Shown here piece by piece: positions 113 through 23,413 of a stretch of DNA of 23,413 bases. The notes under the pieces are model-generated. The model was not told where the DNA came from. It saw only the letters and a list, made by a program, of their open reading frames with translations, and made no database searches. Location of the stretch: positions 1-23,413 of the forward strand of contig CALVEX010000159.1 of NCBI GenBank assembly GCA_944326655.1, read 5' to 3'. Position numbers and translations under genes: made by a program. Each line of letters starts with the position of its first letter. Within the stretch, counting starts at the first letter, position 1. The DNA is from Candidatus Gastranaerophilales bacterium. Lineage in GTDB: Bacteria; Cyanobacteriota; Vampirovibrionia; Gastranaerophilales; Gastranaerophilaceae.

Positions 113-3100
113 TTATTTTAACTGATATAAAGTACATGTCTTTGTAAATTTATCTTTATTTGTCCAGCCGCCGTACAGATCCATATAAATTTCATCACAA
201 TCTATATCGCCGAGAAAAGAAACTTGTCTTATTTCTTGTTGTAAATCAGAAATTGGAACATCATTATAAGACCCGCTCATATAAACCGGAGTATTTTCAA
301 CACCGGTAATTTCTTGAGAAACTTTTGCCGCATAATCAGCCATCGCAGATCTAACCTGTACTCCTGTCGCATTTGAAGGTTTATATTTGTTATTAATTTC
401 TATATTATCAATTATAAAAGCAGGTTTTCCATTGTCATCTTTGATAAAATAACACAGAGCATTTCCTATAGTTTTGCCGGAAGTATTATCAACAAGCTCT
501 ATCATATTATAGGCAGTATCCATCACAAAGTGAGGCATTGCAGATCCATTTCCGCCTCCCATACCTATACAACAGGTCGAGTAATTTCCCTGGAAAATAT
601 CTTTTTGCGGATTTCTGTCCCACATTTTTATTGTCAAATCAAGTTTTCTTTCGGATTTTCCTTCTTGTACTGACGAAATATCATCTAATCTTTGATTAAG
701 ATGCTCTAAAATAGTAAGTGTATTTCGAGGTGTCTGGGCTCTTTTAGGATCGGGATTTGCGGCATTTCCCTGTGCGCGTTTCCATACCTGAGCAAGCTGT
801 CCCTGTTCAGAAGTATCTGATAACATTTCAATAAGTTCTTTTAATTTATTTTTATTAGATAAATATTCTTTAGGTATAATAAACTCATCTCCTTTAATGA
901 ATTTAGGAAATTGTTTTTTCAAAAATCCTTTAACAGGAGTTTGCATTAACATATTTATATCTTCCGATACCTGAGCTGCTATTTGTTCTATATGTTCCGC
1001 ATTTTTATCTTTTGATACAAAATGAATTTCATGTTCTTTTGAGGGGTGTAACCATTTTTCATAATTTAAACCTGATGTCTCAAACATATTACGTGTGTTT
1101 TCATTTGCTATGCCATATATATTAGATGTATTGTGGATAAATTGATTAAAATCAGGTTCTAAAGAACCGGCTTTCATGATATCATTGAAAGATAAATCAT
1201 TGCCTGAATTTATTTCTTTTGAAAGCAAATGAATATAATTCATATCCCAAGACAATAATTTATCTTTGGGAATAGATGCGATTTGAGTATCAGTCAAACC
1301 TGAATTTTTCATTATTTGTTGGCATAAATCTGCATTCAACTGCCCTACATCAACTTTTCCCTGATCTATCATAGATTGTATGCCATCAAATGACATATTG
1401 TTTGCTTTATATGCAGTGATTAAATCTATAAATTCAATTTTTTGTGTAGGCATAAACGGTTTGTTGTCTGTATTGCAGGATTCCGACAGATTTTTTAACA
1501 AAGACATTTCATCCGGGGAAAAATCGCGTAAAATATCTATATACTCATCTGCATCATCAAATCTCATTCTCAATAAATGATTTACTGCTTCTTTGTCAAA
1601 AATTTCAGAAGCTGCCATTAAACAGCAATAATTACTATCAACAAATTCTTCTACTTCATCTCTTGCAAGTTCCGGGGTTTCAAATTCGCCATTGACATAC
1701 CATTCAGGATTTTTTAGCATTTTTTGTTTTAGAGCCTTTACCTTTGAATCCAGTTCTACTAAATCCTTATTTTTTAGCATTTTTAAAACATTATCATTAC
1801 GCGTCCAACAAATATCATCAATAAGAGGTTGAATACGCTCATTCGGGAAATCTGGATTGCGGCATAATTCTCTTACAATGTCTATAATATCCTTGCCTTT
1901 ATTTATGTGGCGCAATATACCTTCTATGTGTTCTTTCGGGAAATCTGGATTGTTGCACAATTCTCTTGCTAACTCTATATTGTCTTTATTTGTGCAACCC
2001 AATAATATACCTTCTATGTGTTCATTCGGGAAATCTGGATTGTTGCATAATTCTCTTGCAAGATTTATATTGTCTTTATTTGTGTAAGCCAATATACCTC
2101 TTATTTGCTTTTTCGGGAAATCTGGATTGTTGCACAATTCTCTTGCAAGGTCAATAATATCCTTGTCTTCATATATGTCGAACATTATACCTTTTATGTC
2201 CTCTTTCGGGAAGTCAGGATTGTTACACATTTTTCTTGCAATGTCTATATTATCTTTATCTGTGAATAACAATATACCACGTATGCGCTCTTTCGAGAAA
2301 TCGCCATTGTACATATCTTTTACAAGATCACGACGCTGATATGCATAATCCATATTATTTTTATCTGAGTAGAATAATATATCGCGCATGTATTCATTTG
2401 GAAAATCCGGATCATTGTATAATTCTCTTGCAAACTCTATGTTATCTTTATTTATGCAACCCAATATATCTTTTATTTGCTTTTTCGGAAAATCCGGATT
2501 GTTACACATTTTTCTTGCAATGTCTATAACATCCTTATCTCTACCTGCTAATAACAATATATCTTTTATTTGCTTTTTCGGGAAATCTGGATTGTTACAC
2601 ATTTCTCTTGCAAACTCTATATTATCCTTATGTGTGTAACCCAATATACCTTTTATGTGTTCATTCGGGAAATCTGGATTGTTACAAATTTCTCTTGCAA
2701 ACTCTATGTTATCCTTATGTGTGCAACCCAATATACCTTTTATGTGTTCTTTCGGGAAATCTGGATTGTTGCACAATTCTCTTGCAAGATCTATATTACC
2801 CTTATTTGTGAAGTCCAAAATATTATTAGCATACTCTCCGCCAATTCCTCTAGCCTTAAGTGTTTCAGCAAGCTCATCTTTCATCTTTGCAAATGTTTCA
2901 TCGTCTATCTCGATTTTTGCTGTTTCCGGTGCAGAAAGCTGTGCATGCTCGGGCACGTCTAATTCTTTGCCCTGCCGCGTAATAGGTGTCCCTTCATTCA
3001 TATCCGTTTTTATTTGTTCTCGTATAACTTCCTGTGTTTCCTGAGTTCTTCCCTGTGAAGCACCTGAAGATGTTTCCAATGATTGTTGCACTCTATGATT

Positions 3101-4978
3101 TTCTTCCGATTGTTTAGCAAAGATATTTGCCTGCGCTTGCTGAGGCGTTTCAGGATGGAAGGTCAGAGCTTCGGGAGCTCCTTCCACTTTGTAGCCCTTT
3201 GTTCCAAGTAACAATACGCTCAGTGCAAGTTCATTATCATTCTTTGCTGTTACTATTACTTCTCCGTTTCTAGTTAAGGTATAGGTCCCGTTTTCTTGTT
3301 TTTCTACATTTACGTTATTTAGTTTTGCACCCTTATGTATTGCAGAACCTGCAAACATCATTCCGTAGTTCATAAGTCCGTTTTGTGACAGGGATTCTTG
3401 TATTGTCATATCGCTTGTTAATCTGTCGAATATAACATCTGCTGTTGTTTCTGTCCCTGTTCCGATGATTTTGGGGATTATACTTTTAAATATTTGAGGA
3501 TTTTTTGACAGGATTTTTGCTACGCTGTCTCCTACAGGGCCTGAGACATATGCACCGAAGGCTCCGTACATCATGCCGTTTTTCAATTCTTCCCAGGCTT
3601 CTTGACCGGTTTGTTCTGTTATTCCTTTTTTGCTTGTTGCATCGCTTACTATTGTCACTGCAGGGTTAAATGCTGCAGTTGCTGTAGTTGCTATGCCTTT
3701 TACAGCGGCATTACTTACCATGGCACCTGCCTTTGTACCGAATTTTGCACTTGCTAGCTGCATTGCTTTGGAACCCAAGTTTTGCATGGCTGTTGAGCCC
3801 ATGGCAAAGTATGATGCTGCTATTGTTGTACCAATTTCGATTACGGCAGCCTGCGTCTTCATGTTAGAAATATATTCATTAATTATTTCTTCCGAGTTAT
3901 AATTTCCCATTGCCTGCTTGTATGCAGACTTGTATTCTTGCTCCAGTGTATTTTTGTCTAAAGAATGTATCTGAGAGTCATATTCATTTTTAGCATCTGT
4001 GAGGAAGCTTTTTAGTTCCTGAACGAATTTCTTATCATCATTTTGAGCAATACTATTTAATTGGGATACGTATTGTTGAGCAAGCTCTCTGTTGTTTCCG
4101 ACATGGGGTAAGATGTGGAGCATTGCTGCTTTTCTGACATTAACGGGGGCTGCATTATCTATGTTCGATAGAGTATTTGAAATATTATCTGATAGGTTTT
4201 GATATGCGTTTAGAGTTTGGAGGTTTGTATCTGCTTTCTGAAGATTTTGAAATGCCTGTTCATTATAATCTATACCATAGAGTTCTTTGAAATTTTTATT
4301 AAATTCTTCTGGATTGTTTGTCGTATTCTTAAGTCTGATAATCCCGCCTATTTCATTGCTGATTGCCTCTCCATTTTCCCAGACTGTAACAAAGTCGTTA
4401 CGGCCTGTTATTTTATCCCAGGTATAGTTGCCTATTGATTGAAGCCCCTGTTGAACGGCATCAAATGAAACTTTACCTATGCCGTTGTAGTAGTTTGTAA
4501 GGTTATCTCCGGCATTCCCTGCTTGTTGGAATAATTTATCAGCAGCGAAAGCTCTTGTTTGTTGGGATTGTTGTTCTAATAATTGTTCCTGGGAGAGATT
4601 TTGTTTTTGTTCAGTTTTTGAAGCGGAAATGGGAGATGGCTGTTGTTGAGTTTGATGATTATTTTGTTCTAGTGTGAGAGTAATATCATCCAGATATGTG
4701 CCGTTGTCATAAGTATCATATTTCCCAAAACTGAATCCATTGCCAAAGATAGAAGTAGAATTGAATCTGGAGTTGTATGAGTCCTGCCCTTCTTTTGTGC
4801 CAAAAGCCCATTCTTCGAATTCATCGCGGGACAGAATTCCGTTTGCAAGCATTTGTGCGGCAACATCATATTTTGACATATCTTTTTTTGATATATATTC
4901 ATTGCTTCTGAGTTGATCCAGGTGTGCCATAGCATAATCATCAATTTTTTTAGATATTGAATCGTTTGTTCCTGACAT
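113..4978 (-). CDS. Giant (1621 aa) multi-domain protein. The N-terminal region is Q/N-rich and polar. A Gly/Ala-rich hydrophobic segment follows (aa ~380-520). The central part has about 11-12 tandem 30-aa repeats (NIEFARELCNNPDFPKEHIKGILGCTHKD). The C-terminal ~250 aa domain is Cys-containing (QGNYSTCCIGMGGGNGSAMPHF...). No signal peptide. Candidate secreted effector, toxin or adhesin-like protein.
   Basis: Single uninterrupted 4866-nt ORF on the minus strand. ATG at 4978 is preceded by GAAGGAAG, with in-frame stops upstream. Plus-strand ORFs inside it are short, repeat-derived artefacts. Repeat periodicity is visible at both protein and nucleotide level. Confidence 0.8.
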   Translation of the reverse strand: MSGTNDSISKKIDDYAMAHLDQLRSNEYISKKDMSKYDVAAQMLANGILSRDEFEEWAFGTKEGQDSYNSRFNSTSIFGNGFSFGKYDTYDNGTYLDDITLTLEQNNHQTQQQPSPISASKTEQKQNLSQEQLLEQQSQQTRAFAADKLFQQAGNAGDNLTNYYNGIGKVSFDAVQQGLQSIGNYTWDKITGRNDFVTVWENGEAISNEIGGIIRLKNTTNNPEEFNKNFKELYGIDYNEQAFQNLQKADTNLQTLNAYQNLSDNISNTLSNIDNAAPVNVRKAAMLHILPHVGNNRELAQQYVSQLNSIAQNDDKKFVQELKSFLTDAKNEYDSQIHSLDKNTLEQEYKSAYKQAMGNYNSEEIINEYISNMKTQAAVIEIGTTIAASYFAMGSTAMQNLGSKAMQLASAKFGTKAGAMVSNAAVKGIATTATAAFNPAVTIVSDATSKKGITEQTGQEAWEELKNGMMYGAFGAYVSGPVGDSVAKILSKNPQIFKSIIPKIIGTGTETTADVIFDRLTSDMTIQESLSQNGLMNYGMMFAGSAIHKGAKLNNVNVEKQENGTYTLTRNGEVIVTAKNDNELALSVLLLGTKGYKVEGAPEALTFHPETPQQAQANIFAKQSEENHRVQQSLETSSGASQGRTQETQEVIREQIKTDMNEGTPITRQGKELDVPEHAQLSAPETAKIEIDDETFAKMKDELAETLKARGIGGEYANNILDFTNKGNIDLARELCNNPDFPKEHIKGILGCTHKDNIEFAREICNNPDFPNEHIKGILGYTHKDNIEFAREMCNNPDFPKKQIKDILLLAGRDKDVIDIARKMCNNPDFPKKQIKDILGCINKDNIEFARELYNDPDFPNEYMRDILFYSDKNNMDYAYQRRDLVKDMYNGDFSKERIRGILLFTDKDNIDIARKMCNNPDFPKEDIKGIMFDIYEDKDIIDLARELCNNPDFPKKQIRGILAYTNKDNINLARELCNNPDFPNEHIEGILLGCTNKDNIELARELCNNPDFPKEHIEGILRHINKGKDIIDIVRELCRNPDFPNERIQPLIDDICWTRNDNVLKMLKNKDLVELDSKVKALKQKMLKNPEWYVNGEFETPELARDEVEEFVDSNYCCLMAASEIFDKEAVNHLLRMRFDDADEYIDILRDFSPDEMSLLKNLSESCNTDNKPFMPTQKIEFIDLITAYKANNMSFDGIQSMIDQGKVDVGQLNADLCQQIMKNSGLTDTQIASIPKDKLLSWDMNYIHLLSKEINSGNDLSFNDIMKAGSLEPDFNQFIHNTSNIYGIANENTRNMFETSGLNYEKWLHPSKEHEIHFVSKDKNAEHIEQIAAQVSEDINMLMQTPVKGFLKKQFPKFIKGDEFIIPKEYLSNKNKLKELIEMLSDTSEQGQLAQVWKRAQGNAANPDPKRAQTPRNTLTILEHLNQRLDDISSVQEGKSERKLDLTIKMWDRNPQKDIFQGNYSTCCIGMGGGNGSAMPHFVMDTAYNMIELVDNTSGKTIGNALCYFIKDDNGKPAFIIDNIEINNKYKPSNATGVQVRSAMADYAAKVSQEITGVENTPVYMSGSYNDVPISDLQQEIRQVSFLGDIDCDEIYMDLYGGWTNKDKFTKTCTLYQLK
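1840..2840 (-). repeat. Tandem ~90-bp (30-codon) repeat array inside the giant CDS, about 11-12 units with high unit-to-unit nucleotide identity.
   Basis: The string ttcgggaaatctggattgtt[g/a]cacaattctcttgcaa recurs at ~1843, 1936, 2026, 2113, 2206, 2293, 2400, 2485, 2576, 2666 and 2753 (period 87-93 bp). The translated unit is ...ARELCNNPDFPKEHIKGILGCTHKDNIEF... Confidence 0.85.
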
Positions 4979-9941: not shown

Positions 9942-11177
9942 TTAAAAAGGGTAATCATCTTTTATCTGCCATCCGTCACGCATAATTTTTGCAGCGCATG
10001 TGTATCCGCCGGATACTGCTTTAGCGTTGCAAGCCCAGGATGCTGTACTATTAATAGTGTTATCAGGCCAATCGTATCCGTAAGGTTTTAACATTTTGTC
10101 AGCCAGAATAAAGAAAAACAAATCCTTTCCTGCAACATTTGGTCCTTTATCAGAACCATTTATATCAATAAAAAATGCTGCATTATTTATTGATGTTGAA
10201 TAGAGTCCAATACAGACACCGTCTACGGTTTTAAAAGATGCAGTCCCCGGATTTATGGGGGAGGAGAGCCAGACTCCTGTCAACCATTCATACTGTGTAT
10301 TTTCATAAAACATTTTCCCGTTATAACACATATTTTCTGCATAGTCTCCGGGCGGATATGTTTTATCAATTTTAAATTCCGGTGCCAAATAATTATTAAC
10401 TATTTTTTCGGGGGAATTCCAATCCTGCCAGTTTTCCATTTCTCCATGTTTAATTTCTGCCATTATAATGGCCTGATTTGTCAGTGTGTAAGCTCGTTTT
10501 AATTTTGTAACAGTTTCATCCTTTTGATGTTTTGTAATTAATGTTGGTAAAGTCATCGCCGCAACCACGCCGATTATGCCGAGGGTGATTAGGACTTCTG
10601 CGAGTGTAAATGCGGCTCGACGTTGACCGTTCAGCAGGACTACGCGCGTAGCGCCATCTGCGATGGTAAAGGTAGCAAGTTTTTTCTTAAGTGAAGAAGT
10701 TAATAAGTCAATAGGTGAATAAGTTCGTTTCAGGGAATTGATATAGTCCCCTCTCCCCGGCGAATTGACCTTCGCGCGGGAGAGTACTCTTATACTCTTC
10801 CCTCTCCCCCTGCGGGAGAGGGTTAGGGTGAGGGGTGTTTGTTTGAAACCCATCCTAACCTTCCCTAATAAGGGAAGGAATTCTATGTCCCCTCCCTTGA
10901 GGGGAGGGGAATACAAGGGGAGGGTGATGCTCTTAAGTGAATAAGTTAATAGGTCAATAAGTGAATAAGTTCTTATCGGCAGCGTACCGCTGCAAAAGAT
11001 TACCGAGGAAATTTCACTATTATGCGATTGCGACGGTCGTTTCACACGCTGGCAATGACACGTATCTTGTGAGCTTTGCTCACAGATACCGGCATACCTT
11101 ATTACCCTCCTATCTTCCGATCTTCCATTAATGGCCTGCCCTCCTGCCTTCTTGAACTCTTGCCTTCTGTTTGTCAC
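9942..11177 (-). CDS. Prepilin-type (type IV pilin-like / pseudopilin-like) protein, paralog 1. The class-III signal motif AAFTLAEVLITLGIIGVVAAMTLP lies at codon ~189 of an open frame that starts at GTG 11177. The C-terminal ~220 aa globular part has the DINGSDKGPNVAGKDLFFF motif. The true 5' end is unresolved (see findings).
   Basis: Canonical FTLxE + hydrophobic helix. There is no in-frame ATG/GTG/TTG within 60 codons upstream of the motif. The frame stays open for ~188 codons back to a GTG whose UG overlaps the UGA stop of an RBS-equipped upstream ORF. Paralogous to 14013..15209. Confidence 0.6.
   Translation of the reverse strand: MTNRRQEFKKAGGQAINGRSEDRRVIRYAGICEQSSQDTCHCQRVKRPSQSHNSEISSVIFCSGTLPIRTYSLIDLLTYSLKSITLPLYSPPLKGGDIEFLPLLGKVRMGFKQTPLTLTLSRRGRGKSIRVLSRAKVNSPGRGDYINSLKRTYSPIDLLTSSLKKKLATFTIADGATRVVLLNGQRRAAFTLAEVLITLGIIGVVAAMTLPTLITKHQKDETVTKLKRAYTLTNQAIIMAEIKHGEMENWQDWNSPEKIVNNYLAPEFKIDKTYPPGDYAENMCYNGKMFYENTQYEWLTGVWLSSPINPGTASFKTVDGVCIGLYSTSINNAAFFIDINGSDKGPNVAGKDLFFFILADKMLKPYGYDWPDNTINSTASWACNAKAVSGGYTCAAKIMRDGWQIKDDYPF
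10688..11170 (-). repeat. Conserved hairpin-rich upstream cassette of pilin paralog 1 (shared with paralog 2 and partly with 23001..23330). It contains four polypyrimidine-loop-polypurine hairpins (10749-10785, 10800-10822, 10859-10878, 10889-10908) bracketed by a ~45-bp direct repeat (10690-10735 and 10925-10972, cttaagtgaataagttaataggtcaataagtgaataagttc). It also contains the palindrome TGTGAGCTTTGCTCACA (11068-11084).
   Basis: Direct sequence comparison with 14750-15205 (modules are nearly identical, with mosaic indels). Confidence 0.75.
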
Positions 11178-11221
11178 GCTTTCGGGGGGGGGGCGATTCT
11201 CAGCTTCTTATCTTTAACCAT
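11174..11221 (-). CDS. Upstream ORF of pilin paralog 1 encoding MVKDKKLRIAPPPKA (15 codons). It contains the C10 tract (encoding APPP). Its UGA stop overlaps the GUG start of the long pilin frame (gcGUGAca).
   Basis: AAGAGGAG-N7-ATG on the minus strand. The 10-G tract is confirmed independently by the plus-strand track ORF 11076..11297 (..CHAFGGGAILSF..). One extra C fuses this ATG in frame with the 9942..11177 frame. Confidence 0.5.
   Translation of the reverse strand: MVKDKKLRIAPPPKA
11184..11193. repeat. Homopolymeric G10 (C10 on the sense strand) inside the upstream ORF of pilin paralog 1. Candidate phase-variation tract.
   Basis: ttc + 10 g + cgatt, read directly from the sequence. Confidence 0.8.
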
Positions 11222-11255
11222 AACAAAACTCCTCTTAATTTCCAATAACATTTTT

Positions 11256-11284
11256 ATTATTTATGATTTTTCAGGTTTTGTCAA
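11256..11284 (-). promoter_or_regulatory. Sigma70-like promoter for pilin paralog 1 (TTGACA-N17-AATAAT), ~55 nt upstream of the upstream-ORF ATG.
   Basis: Minus strand reads tatTGACAaaacctgaaaaatcataAATAATaaaaatg. A perfect -35 hexamer. Confidence 0.45.
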
Positions 11285-11375: not shown

Positions 11376-14012
11376 ATGCCTAATTTTGAAAAGTTTACTA
11401 ATTATTCTCAGGAACTTTTGAATTCTGCAGGTGCAATTATGCAAGAACACAGAAATTCCGAGATGCAGCCCGAGCATATAATGCTTGCTATGATTAAGGA
11501 CAGCGGTGCGATAAAAGATTATTTGACCGAGTTAAAACTTTTAAATCAAGGTTTTATAGATAAAATTGTTTCCGTTGTTAATTCTTTCCCGACAATATCC
11601 GGGCCGCCTTCCGGGCAGGTATTTTTGTCTACCCAGACTTACAGACTGTTAGATTTGGCAGGTCAGCAGGCAGAAGAATTTAAGGATGAATTTATAAGCG
11701 CTGAATCAATCCTGCTTGCTATGACACGATTAGATAACAGCCCTATACAACTATTGTTGAAAAATTACAATGTTGATTCAAATAAAGTTTTAAATGTAAT
11801 GAAAAAAATAAGAGGTAATAAGAAAGTGGATAATAAAAATGCTGAAGAAAATATGAAAGCACTTGAAAAATATTCAACTGATTTAACAGCTCTTGCAAGA
11901 AAGGGAAAATTAGACCCTGTAATAGGCAGAGATGAAGAAGTCAGAAGAATTATTCAGGTATTAAACAGAAGAACAAAAAACAATCCTGTTTTGATAGGTG
12001 AGCCGGGAGTCGGTAAAACTGCAATAGTTGAAGGACTTGCCCAGCGTATTGTGCGCGGTGATGTTCCTGAAAGTTTAAAAGATGTTAAACTTGTTTCTCT
12101 TGATATGGGAGCACTTGTTGCAGGGGCTAAGTTCAGAGGCGAGTTTGAAGAACGTTTAAAAGCAGTATTGAAAGAGGTTGAAGATTCAAACGGCGAAATT
12201 GTAATGTTTATTGATGAGTTGCATACAGTTGTTGGTGCAGGTGCAACAGAAGGTTCAATGGATGCAGGAAACCTCTTGAAACCAATGCTTGCCCGTGGTG
12301 TTTTGAGAACAATCGGTGCTACAACAATTAATGAATATCGTAAATATATAGAAAAAGACCCTGCTTTGGAAAGACGTTTCCAGCCTGTTATGGTTGGTGA
12401 GCCCTCTGTGGAGGATACAATTTCTATCCTCAGAGGTTTAAAAGAAAAATATGAAGTTCACCATGGTATAAGAATTTTAGACAGTGCATTAATTGCTGCT
12501 GCAAAATTGTCTGACAGATATATAACTGACAGATTTCTCCCAGATAAAGCAATTGATTTGATTGATGAGGCCGCATCATCTTTGCGTATCGAAATAGATT
12601 CTATGCCCGAAGAAATTGATAAAATGATGCGTCAGAAAATCCAGCTTGAAATTGAAAGAGAAGCCCTTAAAAAAGAGGTTGACCCCTCCCCGAAATCTGA
12701 GATTTCGACCCTCCCTCAAGGGGAGGGTACTACAGAAACCAAAATTGCAGACCTTACTAAACATATAACAGATTTAGAGGGCAAAATTTCAAAATTAAAA
12801 GCTCAATGGGAACAAGAAAAGGCTTCAATTACAGGTGAAGCAGGTATTAAAGAAGAAATCGAAAAAGTTAAAAATAAAATTGAAGAGGCAGAACGGAATA
12901 CCGATTTGCAGACAGCTGCTGAACTTAAATATGGCAGACTGCTTGAGCTTGAAAAGCAATTAAAGGCTGTGCAGAATAAAGAAAAAACAGATAATAAATT
13001 GCTTAAAGAAGAAATAGACGATGAAGACATTGCAAATGTTGTAAGTAAATGGACGGGAATTCCGGTTAATAAACTCGTAGAAAGTGAAAAGCAAAAACTT
13101 CTTAATATGGAAGAAATATTGCATAAGCGTCTTGTCGGTCAGGAAGAAGCTGTTGATACGGTTGCAGATGCTATCCGTCGTGCGCGTTCAGGCCTAAAAG
13201 ACCCGAAACGCCCGATAGGTACCTTCTTATTCTTAGGGCCTACAGGGGTTGGAAAAACAGAGCTTGCAAAATCTCTTGCGGAATTTATGTTTAACGATGA
13301 AGATGCGCTTATACGTATTGATATGTCCGAGTATATGGAAAAACATAACGTTTCTAGATTAGTCGGTGCTCCTCCGGGATATGTCGGCTATGATGAAGGC
13401 GGTCAGTTGACTGAGGCTGTCAGACGTAAACCTTATTCGGTTGTTCTTTTTGATGAAATTGAAAAGGCTCATCCGGATGTATTCAATATTATGCTTCAAA
13501 TCTTTGATGATGGGCGATTAACTGATTCAAAGGGAAGAACTGTTGATTTTAAAAATACATTAATCATTATGACATCAAACATCGGAAGCGACATAATCCT
13601 TGAAAATACTTTAAATTCTCTGGGTTCAAAGCAGAATTTTGAGGATACTAAAGAAAAAGTTCTTGAAGTTTTGAGAAGCAGGTTTAAACCCGAATTTTTA
13701 AACAGAATAGATGAAACGATATTCTTTAGAGCCTTGAATATGCAGGATTTAACAAAAATTGTCGATATTCAAATGGAGTATTTAAGAAAATTGTTAAAAG
13801 ATCAGGAAATCGACTTTGAAATAACTGATGATGCCAAAGAATTTCTTGCAACCCGCGGCTTTAACCCTGTTTACGGTGCAAGACCATTAAAACGTGTCAT
13901 AAGACAGTTAATTGAAAACCCGTTATCAAAACAAATTTTGGCCCAGAAATTCCTGCGCGGCGACAAGGTTATCATTGATGTTGATAACGATGAAATTGTT
14001 TTCAAAAAATAA
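11376..14012 (+). CDS. clpB: Chaperone ClpB (Hsp100/AAA+ disaggregase), 878 aa, carrying an in-frame ~16-aa insertion in the M-domain.
   Basis: Both AAA+ modules ([37 protein letters not shown]), the M-domain coiled coil and the C-terminal [10 protein letters not shown] motif. Collinear with E. coli ClpB except for the extra [17 protein letters not shown] segment. Confidence 0.95.
12681..12729 (+). repeat. In-frame palindromic hairpin element inside clpB. It combines cgaaatc-tga-gatttcg with accctccc-tcaag-gggagggt, and belongs to the same CCCTCCC-loop-GGGGAGGG family found in the pilin cassettes.
   Basis: Sequence gacccctccccgaaatctgagatttcgaccctccctcaaggggagggtac. Its reverse complement (gtaccctcccc TTGA gggagggtc) is near-identical to the cassette hairpin gtcccctccc TTGA ggggagggg at 10889-10908 and 14766-14785. 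Confidence 0.7.
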
Positions 14013-15209
14013 TTACGGATTAATACATTGCCAGTAAGTTTTTGATGTATCTGTTTCACATGTGTTTAAAATTGCCCATTTTGCACATGTGAAACCCTGG
14101 TAATGTTCTTTCTCAGATGTAAAACAGCCCCCAAAGCGTGTATATGGTACTACGTTGTTATTTTTGTCTATGTTGAATGAAAATAAATCGTGTCCCAGAC
14201 GGTTAGGTCCTTTGGCCGGGCCGTTGATATCAATGTGATACCCTCTCGCTCCCCAAGGACTCATAAATATAAGAATACCACTATTAGTTAAAATAGATTT
14301 TTGAGTAAGTGAGTCCGCGTCTATATGTGCATATGTCCCTTTAACAAAAGAGTCATAACTTTTTTCCCTGCGCCCTGTGCAGTCTAAGTAATATTTTGTG
14401 CACAGTTGAGCATTTGGTATATACTTTATAAGTTTGTCTAAATGATTTGAATATGCTGTTCTCATATCAGATTCAGAATTTAAATCTTCATACAGCATCG
14501 GATAATCATTCTGCATAAGCAGATGAGCATTTTGAATTAATGAATAAGCTTTTTTGAACTGTGTTTCCAAAACATGCCGTTTGTAATTTGTAATAACCAC
14601 AGGTAAAGTCATCGCCGCAACCACTCCGATAATTCCGAGGGTGATGAGGACCTCTGCCAATGTAAACGCGGCCTGACGTTGACCATTCGGCATGGCTACG
14701 CGCGTAGCGCACTCAGCCAAAGTGAATGCAGGTATCAACTGAACGCGTTCCATGTCCCCTCCCTTGAGGGGAGGGGAATTCAAGGGGAGGGTGATGCTCT
14801 TAAGTGAATAAGTTAATAAGTCAATAGGTGAATAAGTTCGTTTCGAGAAGGTGTTCTGCCTCTCTTTGGAAAACTCTTGTTCAAATATTTTAAAGTTTAA
14901 TAAATATTGTGGCAGAGGGCGAAAAAGAGGGTTGGGGTGAGGTTCTATTATGTTCTGCGATTGCGACGGTCGTTCCACTCCCTCGCAATGACATGTATTT
15001 TGTGAGCTTTGCTCACCGATTTCAGCATACCCTCCTACCTTCCTATCTTCCAATCTTCCTGAATCAGCCCTCTCTCTAACTATCTCCCGAGGAGAGAAAA
15101 CGCGTTTCAACTTCCTTATACAGGAAAGGAAGTTATTTTTACGCGGGCTCTGCCCGCCGATAATAGCCTGACCTCCTGCCTTCTTGCCCTCCTGACTTCT
15201 TTTTGTCAC
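14013..15209 (-). CDS. Prepilin-type (type IV pilin-like) protein, paralog 2. MPNGQRQAAFTLAEVLITLGIIGVVAAMTLP lies at codon 173, with an in-frame ATG at 14693 just before the motif. The C-terminal part has the DINGPAKGPNRLGHDLFSF motif. The frame is open back to a GTG near 15209 that is coupled to an upstream ORF, as in paralog 1.
   Basis: Same architecture as 9942..11177. The stop codon abuts the clpB stop (convergent, zero spacer). A partial duplicate FTLAE motif (IPAFTLAECATRVAMPNGQRQAAFTLAEV) is present. Confidence 0.65.
   Translation of the reverse strand: MTKRSQEGKKAGGQAIIGGQSPRKNNFLSCIRKLKRVFSPREIVRERADSGRLEDRKVGGYAEIGEQSSQNTCHCEGVERPSQSQNIIEPHPNPLFRPLPQYLLNFKIFEQEFSKERQNTFSKRTYSPIDLLTYSLKSITLPLNSPPLKGGDMERVQLIPAFTLAECATRVAMPNGQRQAAFTLAEVLITLGIIGVVAAMTLPVVITNYKRHVLETQFKKAYSLIQNAHLLMQNDYPMLYEDLNSESDMRTAYSNHLDKLIKYIPNAQLCTKYYLDCTGRREKSYDSFVKGTYAHIDADSLTQKSILTNSGILIFMSPWGARGYHIDINGPAKGPNRLGHDLFSFNIDKNNNVVPYTRFGGCFTSEKEHYQGFTCAKWAILNTCETDTSKTYWQCINP
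14750..15205 (-). repeat. Conserved hairpin-rich upstream cassette of pilin paralog 2. It contains hairpin 14766-14785 (cccctccc-ttga-ggggaggg), hairpins 15083-15095 and 15111-15132, the gaataagt module 14797-14850 and the palindrome TGTGAGCTTTGCTCAC (15001-15016).
   Basis: Module-by-module similarity to 10688-11170. An additional ~140-nt segment is absent from paralog 1. Confidence 0.75.
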
Positions 15210-15253
15210 GCTTTCGGGGGGGGGGCGATTCTCAGCTTCTTATCTTTTTTCAT
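15206..15253 (-). CDS. Upstream ORF of pilin paralog 2 (MKKDKKLRIAPPPKA if the tract is C10). It has the same RBS, poly-C tract and UGA/GUG overlap as paralog 1.
   Basis: AAAAGGAG-N7-ATG on the minus strand. The 3' coordinate depends on the tract length (9 as I read the printed line; 10 implied by the frame of the supplied ORF 14013..15209). Confidence 0.4.
   Translation of the reverse strand: MKKDKKLRIAPPPKA
15217..15225. repeat. Homopolymeric G tract (9-10 nt) inside the upstream ORF of pilin paralog 2.
   Basis: I read gctttc + 9 g + cgatt. The adjacent block reads cctgcccttcttg. The ORF-track translation MTKRSQEGKKAGG requires cctgccttcttg instead, so the G run is most probably 10 and one of my two run counts is off by one. 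Confidence 0.6.
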
Positions 15254-15287
15254 AACAAAACTCCTTTTAATTTCCAATAACATATTT

Positions 15288-15317
15288 ATTATGAGCCAAT
15301 TTAATAGTATTTGTCAA
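15288..15317 (-). promoter_or_regulatory. Sigma70-like promoter for pilin paralog 2 (TTGACA-N18-CATAAT), positionally equivalent to the promoter of paralog 1.
   Basis: Minus strand reads ggaTTGACAaatactattaaattggctCATAATaaatatg. Confidence 0.45.
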
Positions 15318-15531
15318 TCCTTTTCATACGTATTGTTTATTACCGTTTCTTGTGTTCTGTCTTTATAAAAATCTAACCGTCTGCTGCCTTTTTCTTGTTC
15401 TTCGTGTAAATCCGTTCCAGATCAAAGTTATTTAAGTCTTTATATATCCAGGAATTTTGAATTTTAATATTTCCATCATCGGTTAATTCATTAATGGTAA
15501 TTTACCCTGGTTGATTTTCTATTTTATATCT

Positions 15532-23000: not shown

Positions 23001-23330
23001 ATGTGTAATACAGTCATTCTGTACCTCGGATTGTGCTTTGTGTTTCAGAAGTTAGTTGCAAGAAGTTCGGAAGGCAGGAAGGCAAGAGGTCAAGCCGTTA
23101 TCGGCGGGCAAGGCCCTCGTAATGACAATTACAAGTTTAACTTTTGCAGCGGTACGCTGCCTATACGAACTTCTCGTCCTAACGTCTTTACGTCTTATCG
23201 TCTGAAACAATACGAACCTCACCCCAGCCTCTCCTTGTAAAGGAGAGGGGACGATATCAGCTCGCCGAAACGAACTTATTCACCTAAACTCGTTTCACTC
23301 TTCACTCATCACAGTTCACTTAATATTATT
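23001..23330 (+). repeat. Third, degraded copy of the pilin upstream cassette (plus-strand orientation). It lacks the promoter, upstream ORF and poly-C module, has a frame-breaking stop, and retains one hairpin (cctctcctt-gtaa-aaggagagg, 23228-23249) and a diverged gaataagt module. A new gene starts at ~23405 (AGAGGG..ATGAAAA).
   Basis: Same-frame peptide similarity (VARSSEGRKARGQAVIGGQ...FCSGTLPIRT against paralogs 1 and 2). Nucleotide similarity to 11120-11170 and 15120-15200, including synonymous third-position differences. Confidence 0.6.
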
Positions 23331-23413
23331 AGTAACCGTAATTAATCCTTTATGAGTGAAAAATTTTTTTTATATGGTACAATTTTTTCAAAAAGAGGGT
23401 TATGTGATGAAAA

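Follow-up and report, generated by a model that had tools for sequence, protein, structure and literature searches.

BoxC/PIT/TM triplex-type repeats in the stop-free leaders of pilin-like genes in a gut Gastranaerophilales genome

The 23,413-nucleotide (nt) contig CALVEX010000159.1 of Candidatus Gastranaerophilales bacterium (assembly GCA_944326655.1), analysed over its whole length and hereafter called the window, carries two pilin-like paralogs on the minus strand, each preceded by a long stop-free leader in the pilin reading frame. The leader of paralog 1 contains a block of short palindromes. This block lies on the minus strand within an open reading frame (ORF) of 411 amino acids (aa) at 9942-11177, the C-terminal 223 residues of which are type IV pilin-like; the ORF of paralog 2 spans 14013-15209. 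A sequence-only reading of this DNA had proposed that the palindromes build the pilin cassettes. That reading had missed the minus-strand orientation of the genes, the ORF and the start module with an ATG and a run of ten C residues (C10), and the elements are instead located in the leader upstream of the FTLAEV cleavage motif, leaving the pilin body free of them. The features of paralog 1 are as follows.

9942-10610, minus strand: pilin-like body, beginning FTLAEVLITLGIIGVVAAMTLP..., with N_methyl (PF07963) and DUF6613 (PF20318) domains
10611-11183, minus strand: stop-free leader of 573 nt composed of repeat modules, in which the pilin frame holds 0 stops and the other two frames hold 11 and 15
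10686-10726, minus strand: copy B of the 'gaataagt' module, ending in CACTTAAGAAAAAA directly before the pilin N-terminus
10751-10784: composite hairpin CTCTCCCGCGCGAAGG..TTCGCCGGGGAGAG, with CTCTCCC..GGGAGAG arms and an inner GCGAA/TTCGC stem
10781-10798: hairpin AGAGTAT-AAGA-GTACTCT, whose arms are not of the pyrimidine/purine type
10800-10822: palindrome CCCTCTCCC-CCTGC-GGGAGAGGG, within the consensus match of the next line
10800-10834, plus strand: TMECO/BoxC consensus copy (element 3) of type A, with a TTA second loop; 1 match, against 0 in 100 shuffles
10849-10878, minus strand: triplex-type element 2, CCTTCCCT-TATT-AGGGAAGG-TTA-GGATGGG, in the opposite orientation and forming an inverted pair with element 3
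10859-10878: palindrome CCTTCCCT-AATA-AGGGAAGG
10888-10910: palindrome TCCCCTCCC-TTGAG-GGGAGGGGA
10888-10924, plus strand: triplex-type element 1, TCCCCTCCC-TTGAG-GGGAGGGGA-ATACA-AGGGGAGGG, whose third block is a perfect 9-position mirror (9/9, shuffle p 0.002)
10932-10972, minus strand: copy A of the 'gaataagt' module, octamer-periodic and translated as KRTYSLIDLLTYSLK
11174-11177, minus strand: GTGA, where the TGA stop of the 15-aa ATG-frame peptide MVKDKKLRIAPPPKA overlaps a pilin-frame GTG
11184-11193, minus strand: C10 tract (G10 on the plus strand), by which the ATG misses the frame of the long ORF by one base; a tract of C11 or C8 would bring the two into register
11219-11233, minus strand: Shine-Dalgarno sequence AGGAG and ATG (11219-11221)
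11256-11284, minus strand: promoter-like site, TTGACA, 17 nt, AATAAT, matching 11 of 12 consensus positions

Perfect hairpins with a pyrimidine arm, a purine arm and a stem of at least 7 occur eight times in the window, against a mean of 0.3 and a maximum of 2 in dinucleotide shuffles, and leader 1 holds three of them against 0.005 expected. With folding programs restricted to Watson-Crick pairs, the block at 10736-10930 gave z = -5.8 as RNA and -5.5 as DNA, values that 0 of 200 shuffles equalled. All palindromes named in the sequence-only reading are in place, including those at 14755-14777, 15111-15132 and 23228-23248. Among the hairpins that it listed, tctcc-cga-ggaga (15083-15095) is weak with just 5 base pairs, and a further copy inside ClpB (12709-12727) had been overlooked. 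The direct repeat of the gaataagt module around the block is likewise real: 10685-10731 and 10931-10977 share 89% identity with an internal period of 8 nt, and a third copy is located at 14798-14844. Relative to paralog 2, the block and one repeat copy form a clean indel of 189 nt, or 63 codons.

Judged by sequence and design, the hairpins are copies and variants of a known family, the BoxC/PIT/TM-TMECO intrastrand-triplex repeats, rather than a new family, and what is new is their setting. The family consensus is CCCTCNCCC-N3-6-GGGNGAGGG-N3-GGGNGAGGG, with TTA as the second loop of type A (Holder et al. 2015, PMC4666352). The sequence at 10800-10834 fits this consensus exactly, as do the related loci L003, L004 and L021 and E. 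coli control loci. The remaining hairpins of the block depart from the strict pattern, and variants that keep the design in a looser form are found at 10888-10924, 10849-10878, 14755-14791 and 23217-23252. BLAST of 10800-10835 against E. coli found copies with 80-95% identity, at a median of 17 per genome, and E. coli copies match the window element with 87% identity over 44 nt. One example, CCCCTCACCCTAACCCTCTCCCCAGAGGGGCGAGGGGAC, lies between fabI and ycjD, where the K-12 annotation holds no repeat feature, and the family name is taken from the literature.

A third block usually accompanies the C-rich hairpins. It takes the form of a C-rich box located 2-5 nt upstream or, on the opposite strand, of a G-rich box that follows a short loop, commonly TTA, and at least 12 of 18 elements possess it. 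Its mirror score (113/155) barely exceeds its direct-repeat score (102/155) because the blocks themselves are symmetric, and the mirror is complete (9/9) in the CCCCTCCC type. An earlier aside on H-DNA-prone mirror tracts is borne out by this three-block design of a known intrastrand-triplex family. On the other hand, the proposal that the stems covary under selection on structure without sequence does not stand, since the stems had been preselected as perfect, the primary sequence is conserved and the core is the exact published E. coli consensus.

BoxC/TMECO motifs have been reported in more than 260 genomes (PMC4666352). E. coli K-12 has 23 copies, always intergenic (PMC4666352; copy number also PMC2267715), without strand bias and with five inverted pairs, and the copies are associated with rearranged loci; oligonucleotides form a stable purine-motif triplex in vitro that is unsupported in vivo in E. 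coli, and the repeat has neither promoter nor terminator activity there (PMC4666352). The window copies resemble these repeats in sequence and three-block design, inverted pairs, lack of a fixed orientation and association with variable loci. They differ in that they lie in frame within ORFs (the pilin leaders and ClpB) rather than between genes, although intergenic copies do occur in some relatives. Furthermore, many are diverged variants with CCTTCCC, CCCCTCCC or CCTCTCCTT arms, and the host is a member of the Gastranaerophilales (Melainabacteria) with ~36% G+C. By our own count the C-rich orientation is commoner on the sense strand, roughly 13 to 3. Of its three frames, the G-rich orientation of type A meets TAG or TGA in two, whereas the C-rich orientation meets TAA in only one, and the sense-strand excess fits stop avoidance.

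A pattern scan of species genomes matched this sequence type in metagenome-assembled genomes of Candidatus Gastranaerophilales. Among 22 distinct leaders from the window and the related loci (4889 nt), 21 are free of stops in the pilin frame; the stop counts of the other two frames are 130 and 113. Since these counts come from the same sequences, base composition is ruled out as the cause of the open frame. The indels between paralogs 1 and 2 measure 99, 66 and 189 nt, every one a multiple of 3. No in-frame ATG, GTG or TTG is present within 80 codons of the pilin N-terminus of paralog 1, and paralog 1, the ortholog L005 and several other loci lack an own start codon near the pilin N-terminus. 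The two paralog leaders differ by substitutions that fall evenly on the three codon positions (28, 21 and 31) and no Pfam domain was reported in the leader, which argues that the constraint is on frame and stops and not on the peptide. One element type is read in different frames, and both element orientations are present within one leader; the predicted leader peptides include TPLTLTLSR, AKVNSPGR and TYSPIDLLTSSLK. A protein search with the leader only gave five matches, of which three are joined to pilin N-termini and two are fragments.

PF07963 matches both paralogs, and the family alignment shows no variation at F3, T4, E7 and G13. The junction between leader and pilin body resembles a class III signal peptide in its [A/G]-FTLAEV motif followed by a hydrophobic helix, its N_methyl match and the Glu at +5. 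It differs in that the residue at -1 is often Ala and the leader is made of repeat DNA and is not short and basic: counted from the ATG, it ranges from 47 aa (L005) to about 200-240 aa (the window and P0002, a locus known from its protein alone), against about 6-30 for class III signal peptides. Gene calls at the related loci are inconsistent, and the same gene is called either with 411 aa from a spurious GTG or with 204 aa from the internal Met of AAMTLP.

Paralog 2 is built on the same plan.

14013-14666, minus strand: pilin-like body
14667-15215, minus strand: stop-free leader of 549 nt, with hairpins at 15143-15158, 15111-15132 and 15083-15095 and a gaataagt module at 14799-14839
14755-14791, plus strand: triplex-type element, the same element as at 10888-10924
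15216-15225, minus strand: C10 tract, with its ATG at 15251-15253 and TTGACA at 15312-15317

The start module consists of the promoter-like site, AGGAG, ATG, nine codons and the C10/G10 tract in this order, the stop-free leader follows it, and a TTGACA...TAAATAAT module is found upstream of nearly all start modules in the related loci. In this first set of loci, the ATG precedes the tract by exactly 28 nt in poly-C modules and by exactly 30 nt in poly-G modules. The tract length is exactly 10 in 19 of the 22, which places the pilin frame at offset 2, one base short. The ATG frame closes after 13-18 codons (MxKxKKLRIAPPPK[ARS] and a stop), 3-6 codons past the tract. In-frame variants exist in L019 (C11), in L003, where the tract is interrupted and the frame runs on from the ATG, and in P0002.

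Because a metagenome scan with the start module as query gave 0 matches, an alignment of the pilin protein was used for a second scan, which provided 82 further pilin-like genes from gut metagenomes. A tract of 8-13 inside the open frame is present in 40 of the 82, with a mode of 10 (25/40), and 33 of the 40 obey the rule offset = (length - 11) mod 3. Five tract-bearing genes, two with G8 and three with G11, are in frame, and 31 of the 82 genes have an ordinary short 'MKKAFTLAEV' start without a tract. A G/C tract in the 5' coding region thus sets the reading frame by its length. This pattern is probably the signature of a homopolymer contingency switch, from which we infer switching at the DNA level. 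Like the contingency loci of C. jejuni (polyG/C), Neisseria (pilC/opc) and Helicobacter, these genes have an 8-13 G/C run just after the start codon of a surface protein, a modal tract length, and ON and OFF alleles one base apart. In contrast to those systems, nearly all loci here stand at one OFF length, and the tract is followed by a long non-functional leader and not by the mature protein.

Another observation at the start modules concerns the GTGA overlap at 11174-11177 and 15206-15209 (minus strand), which would permit termination-reinitiation at both window loci despite C10. As a general mechanism this was rejected, as GTGA is found only in the window, its duplicate L021 and L006-type modules and is missing at the remaining loci.

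The repeats are gained and lost between orthologs. The syntenic locus L005 (GCA_949296425.1) and L022, which is from another sample, have the same start module and C10, and their leader of just 105 nt contains neither the hairpin block nor the gaataagt module. The independent assembly L021 has a leader identical to that of the window; a collapsed or chimeric repeat was therefore ruled out as the source of the block. Two further sites in the window contain the same repeats.

12684-12725, plus strand: in-frame insertion of 42 nt (14 aa) of the same element type in the middle domain of ClpB (11376-14012)
23050-23324, plus strand: decayed leader remnant in which the modules and their order are kept, with a triplex-type element at 23217-23252 and an in-frame TAA in a hairpin loop

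The ClpB insertion is found neither in an ortholog with 94% identity nor in the E. coli protein. The remnant has neither a start module nor a pilin gene before the end of the window at 23,413. Over 7236 nt the window and L021 are 99.63% identical, and 21 of the 27 differences are clustered at the leader/pilin junction (10400-10799), a cluster that suggests a conversion tract received from another paralog by gene conversion. Paralog 2 is missing at the syntenic position in L005 (2086-3051, compared with 14013-15530 in the window), where an unrelated opposite-strand gene of 226 aa and fragments of leader modules are found instead; this replacement indicates turnover of pilin genes.

The sequence-only reading had called the elements mobile or expanding. 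Gain and loss between loci agree with this description, but hallmarks of transposition are lacking: terminal inverted repeats and target-site duplications were not found, and the boundary of the ClpB insertion has no duplication. 'Mobile' therefore applies to gain and loss only, and a transposon-type MITE was rejected. Since the block is bounded by module repeats of 41-47 nt, recombination or duplication is favored over transposition.

We consider it the best explanation, with a probability of roughly 60%, that the prepilin leader is disposable and phase-variable and tolerates the repeats, in much the same way as Rickettsia genes tolerate in-frame palindromic elements. The repeats would have built up in the leader as copies were gained, duplicated between the gaataagt repeats and exchanged by recombination among paralogs. 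Translation would start from the promoter, ribosome-binding site and ATG, pass through the nine codons and the C10/G10 tract, and continue without a stop into the FTLAEV prepilin motif. With a tract of 10 the ATG would be one base off and the gene OFF, and tract lengths of 11, reached by a +1 slip, or of 8 would turn it ON. The prepilin peptidase would then cut the leader off, leaving the leader sequence nearly free. Only insertions that keep the frame and bring no stop would survive, and the repeats would thus be tolerated passengers that probably add to local instability and recombination. Such passenger status is suggested by the block-less leaders of L005 and L022, the occurrence of the elements in both orientations and several frames, the even substitutions, the gain in ClpB, the stop in the remnant and the absence of Pfam domains from the leader.

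Several observations weigh against this explanation. The density of C-rich hairpins is 0.37/kb in leaders and 0.028/kb in flanking DNA, an approximately 13-fold enrichment that pure neutrality does not obviously predict, and no mechanism of spread was found. To our knowledge, characterised prepilin leaders are about 6-30 aa, far shorter than the 47-240 aa found here. The tract length is strikingly uniform at 10, and only about 10% of the tract-bearing genes are in frame in consensus assemblies. Moreover, the tract length is equal in all three ortholog pairs from different assemblies, so that variation is seen only between loci and not within a locus.

Since tract lengths are equal across independent assemblies, recoding by RNA polymerase or the ribosome stays a live rival, though a somewhat unlikely one, and it competes with the switching step alone. 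C10 would then be the working state and would give a low, fixed pilin level, with the frame restored either by RNA polymerase adding a base on C10/G10 or by the ribosome slipping by -1 on C CCC CCC. The recurrence of exactly 10 with the same one-base deficit in both gene sets, and the conserved ATG-frame stop shortly past the tract, would be expected from such recoding. The RNA-DNA hybrid of a transcription complex, moreover, has about the length of a run of 10. However, lengths of 8, 9, 11, 12 and 13 follow one frame rule and both in-frame and locked-ON alleles exist, which is the pattern of a mutable DNA tract, and no conserved stimulatory structure follows the tract. Documented transcriptional slippage in bacteria concerns A/T runs (PMC1088944), and a modal tract length, set by mutational bias, is also documented for the polyG tracts of truly phase-variable C. 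jejuni genes (PMC3401435).

The enrichment of the repeats in leaders can also be read as adaptive instability, in which triplex-type repeats are kept since they promote breakage and recombination and thereby drive the exchange of pilin genes and leaders. The loss of paralog 2 at L005 with leader-module debris left behind, the remnant at 23050-23324 and the conversion-like patch at the leader/pilin junction are consistent with this idea, and the motifs mark rearranged loci in E. coli. However, many tract-bearing leaders have no such repeat and the L005 ortholog manages without them, the association could reflect tolerance rather than cause, and a stable triplex is unsupported in vivo in E. coli (PMC4666352). 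We regard adaptive instability as unlikely.

Selection on structure, as proposed in the sequence-only reading, would make the hairpins functional RNA or DNA structures that act in the leader on translation speed, mRNA stability or termination. The strong folding z-scores, the perfect pairing of stems of differing sequence and the enrichment in leaders would suit such a role, which nevertheless seems quite improbable given that the hairpins are present or absent between close orthologs and occur in both orientations, that the conserved variant at 14926-14942 has lost its G-rich arm and that the family is intergenic in E. coli without promoter or terminator activity (PMC4666352). An Rfam search at the gathering threshold matched tRNA-Thr alone, and the E-value mode added only sub-threshold chance matches to miRNA and snoRNA models. 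With no Rfam match above threshold and polymorphic elements, a riboswitch or leader RNA family was rejected.

That the leaders are untranslated 5' regions or decaying pseudogenes, open by base composition, is hardly credible: in consensus assemblies the ATG is out of frame at most loci and the leader peptides resemble low-complexity junk, but the stop counts of 0 against 130 and 113 in the same sequences, the frame rule in 33 of 40 genes where pseudogenes would gain stops and frame-breaking indels, and the stop that the true remnant does carry all oppose it.

Rickettsia palindromic elements (RPEs) insert in frame into protein genes, are translated as an extra peptide and are tolerated at permissive sites (review PMC10969869). 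The elements of the window share with RPEs the small palindromic form and the in-frame position within coding genes, for which the ClpB insertion is a clear case, and the RPE-like behaviour proposed earlier stands in this respect. They are nevertheless not members of the RPE family. RPEs are about 100-150 bp with a conserved peptide and a Rickettsia host and have no sequence relation to the present elements, which are about 35-45 nt, are read in several frames, are concentrated in a presumably discarded leader and belong to BoxC/PIT/TM. The likeness to REP/BIME, ERIC, Correia and MITE-like repeats is confined to short, dispersed, imperfect palindromes of modular composition. These repeats are extragenic by definition, whereas the window copies lie in ORFs. 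In addition, REPs rely on a RAYT transposase, and MITEs are marked by terminal inverted repeats and target duplications.

Taken further, and only tentatively, these data may describe gut Gastranaerophilales prepilins with translated leaders of 50-240 residues that are made of selfish triplex-type and other repeats and gated by a one-base-off C10/G10 tract in roughly half of a large pilin-like gene family. If this is true, no other class III signal peptide would come near them in length, and real precursors of this size would stretch the limits of the prepilin leader. The discarded leader would be a safe harbour in which repeats multiply, spread by recombination among paralogs and occasionally enter housekeeping genes such as ClpB, and the repeats would in turn speed the turnover of the pilin repertoire. 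We found no earlier case of the BoxC/PIT/TM repeat, which is pan-bacterial and poorly understood, inside translated sequence, and the leader setting offers a natural test of its spread and tolerance. The loci also point to a large, probably phase-variable repertoire of surface proteins in an uncultured human-gut lineage, in which gene callers make the systematic error of missing both the ATG-tract module and the true N-terminus.

The leaders contain further modules. Degenerate octamer tandem repeats (TAAGTGAA and GGAAGATC types) form separate modules at 10688-10724, 10934-10970 and 11108-11126; changes in octamer number would also shift the frame, as 8 is not divisible by 3. An N-terminal motif is duplicated as AFTLAE-[G/C]ATRVA.PNGQRxA-AFTLAEV around the 14-nt perfect palindrome GCTACGCGCGTAGC (14695-14708). 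This duplicated AFTLAE module is located at 14695-14726 and 10620-10670 and recurs widely in the family (FTLAEGATHVA...). Translational bypassing from one copy of the motif to the other was rejected, as the frame is open throughout and nothing requires a bypass. A module GTCATTGC.AG.G.GTG.AACGACCGTCGCAATC is found at 11026-11059 and 14959-14992 (minus strand), and GTCATCCTGAACTTGTTT... occurs in other loci; we presume that these modules resemble short palindromic repeats of many phyla (SLRG..., VILNLFQDL). At 14880-14942 (minus strand), the conserved BoxC-like variant PHPNPLFRPLPQYLLNFKIFEQ has lost the G-rich arm (14926-14942, peptide PHPNPLFRPLP), and an AT-rich palindrome is apparently nested at the former loop.

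The neighbouring genes are housekeeping genes and encode a sigma-70 factor, a RecN-like ATPase, ClpB, GlmS, MetK and tRNA-Thr. At the start of the window, an ORF of 1621 aa (113-4978, minus strand) has no Pfam match and contains, around 1837-2820, a long tandem array with a repeat unit of 87 nt (29 aa).

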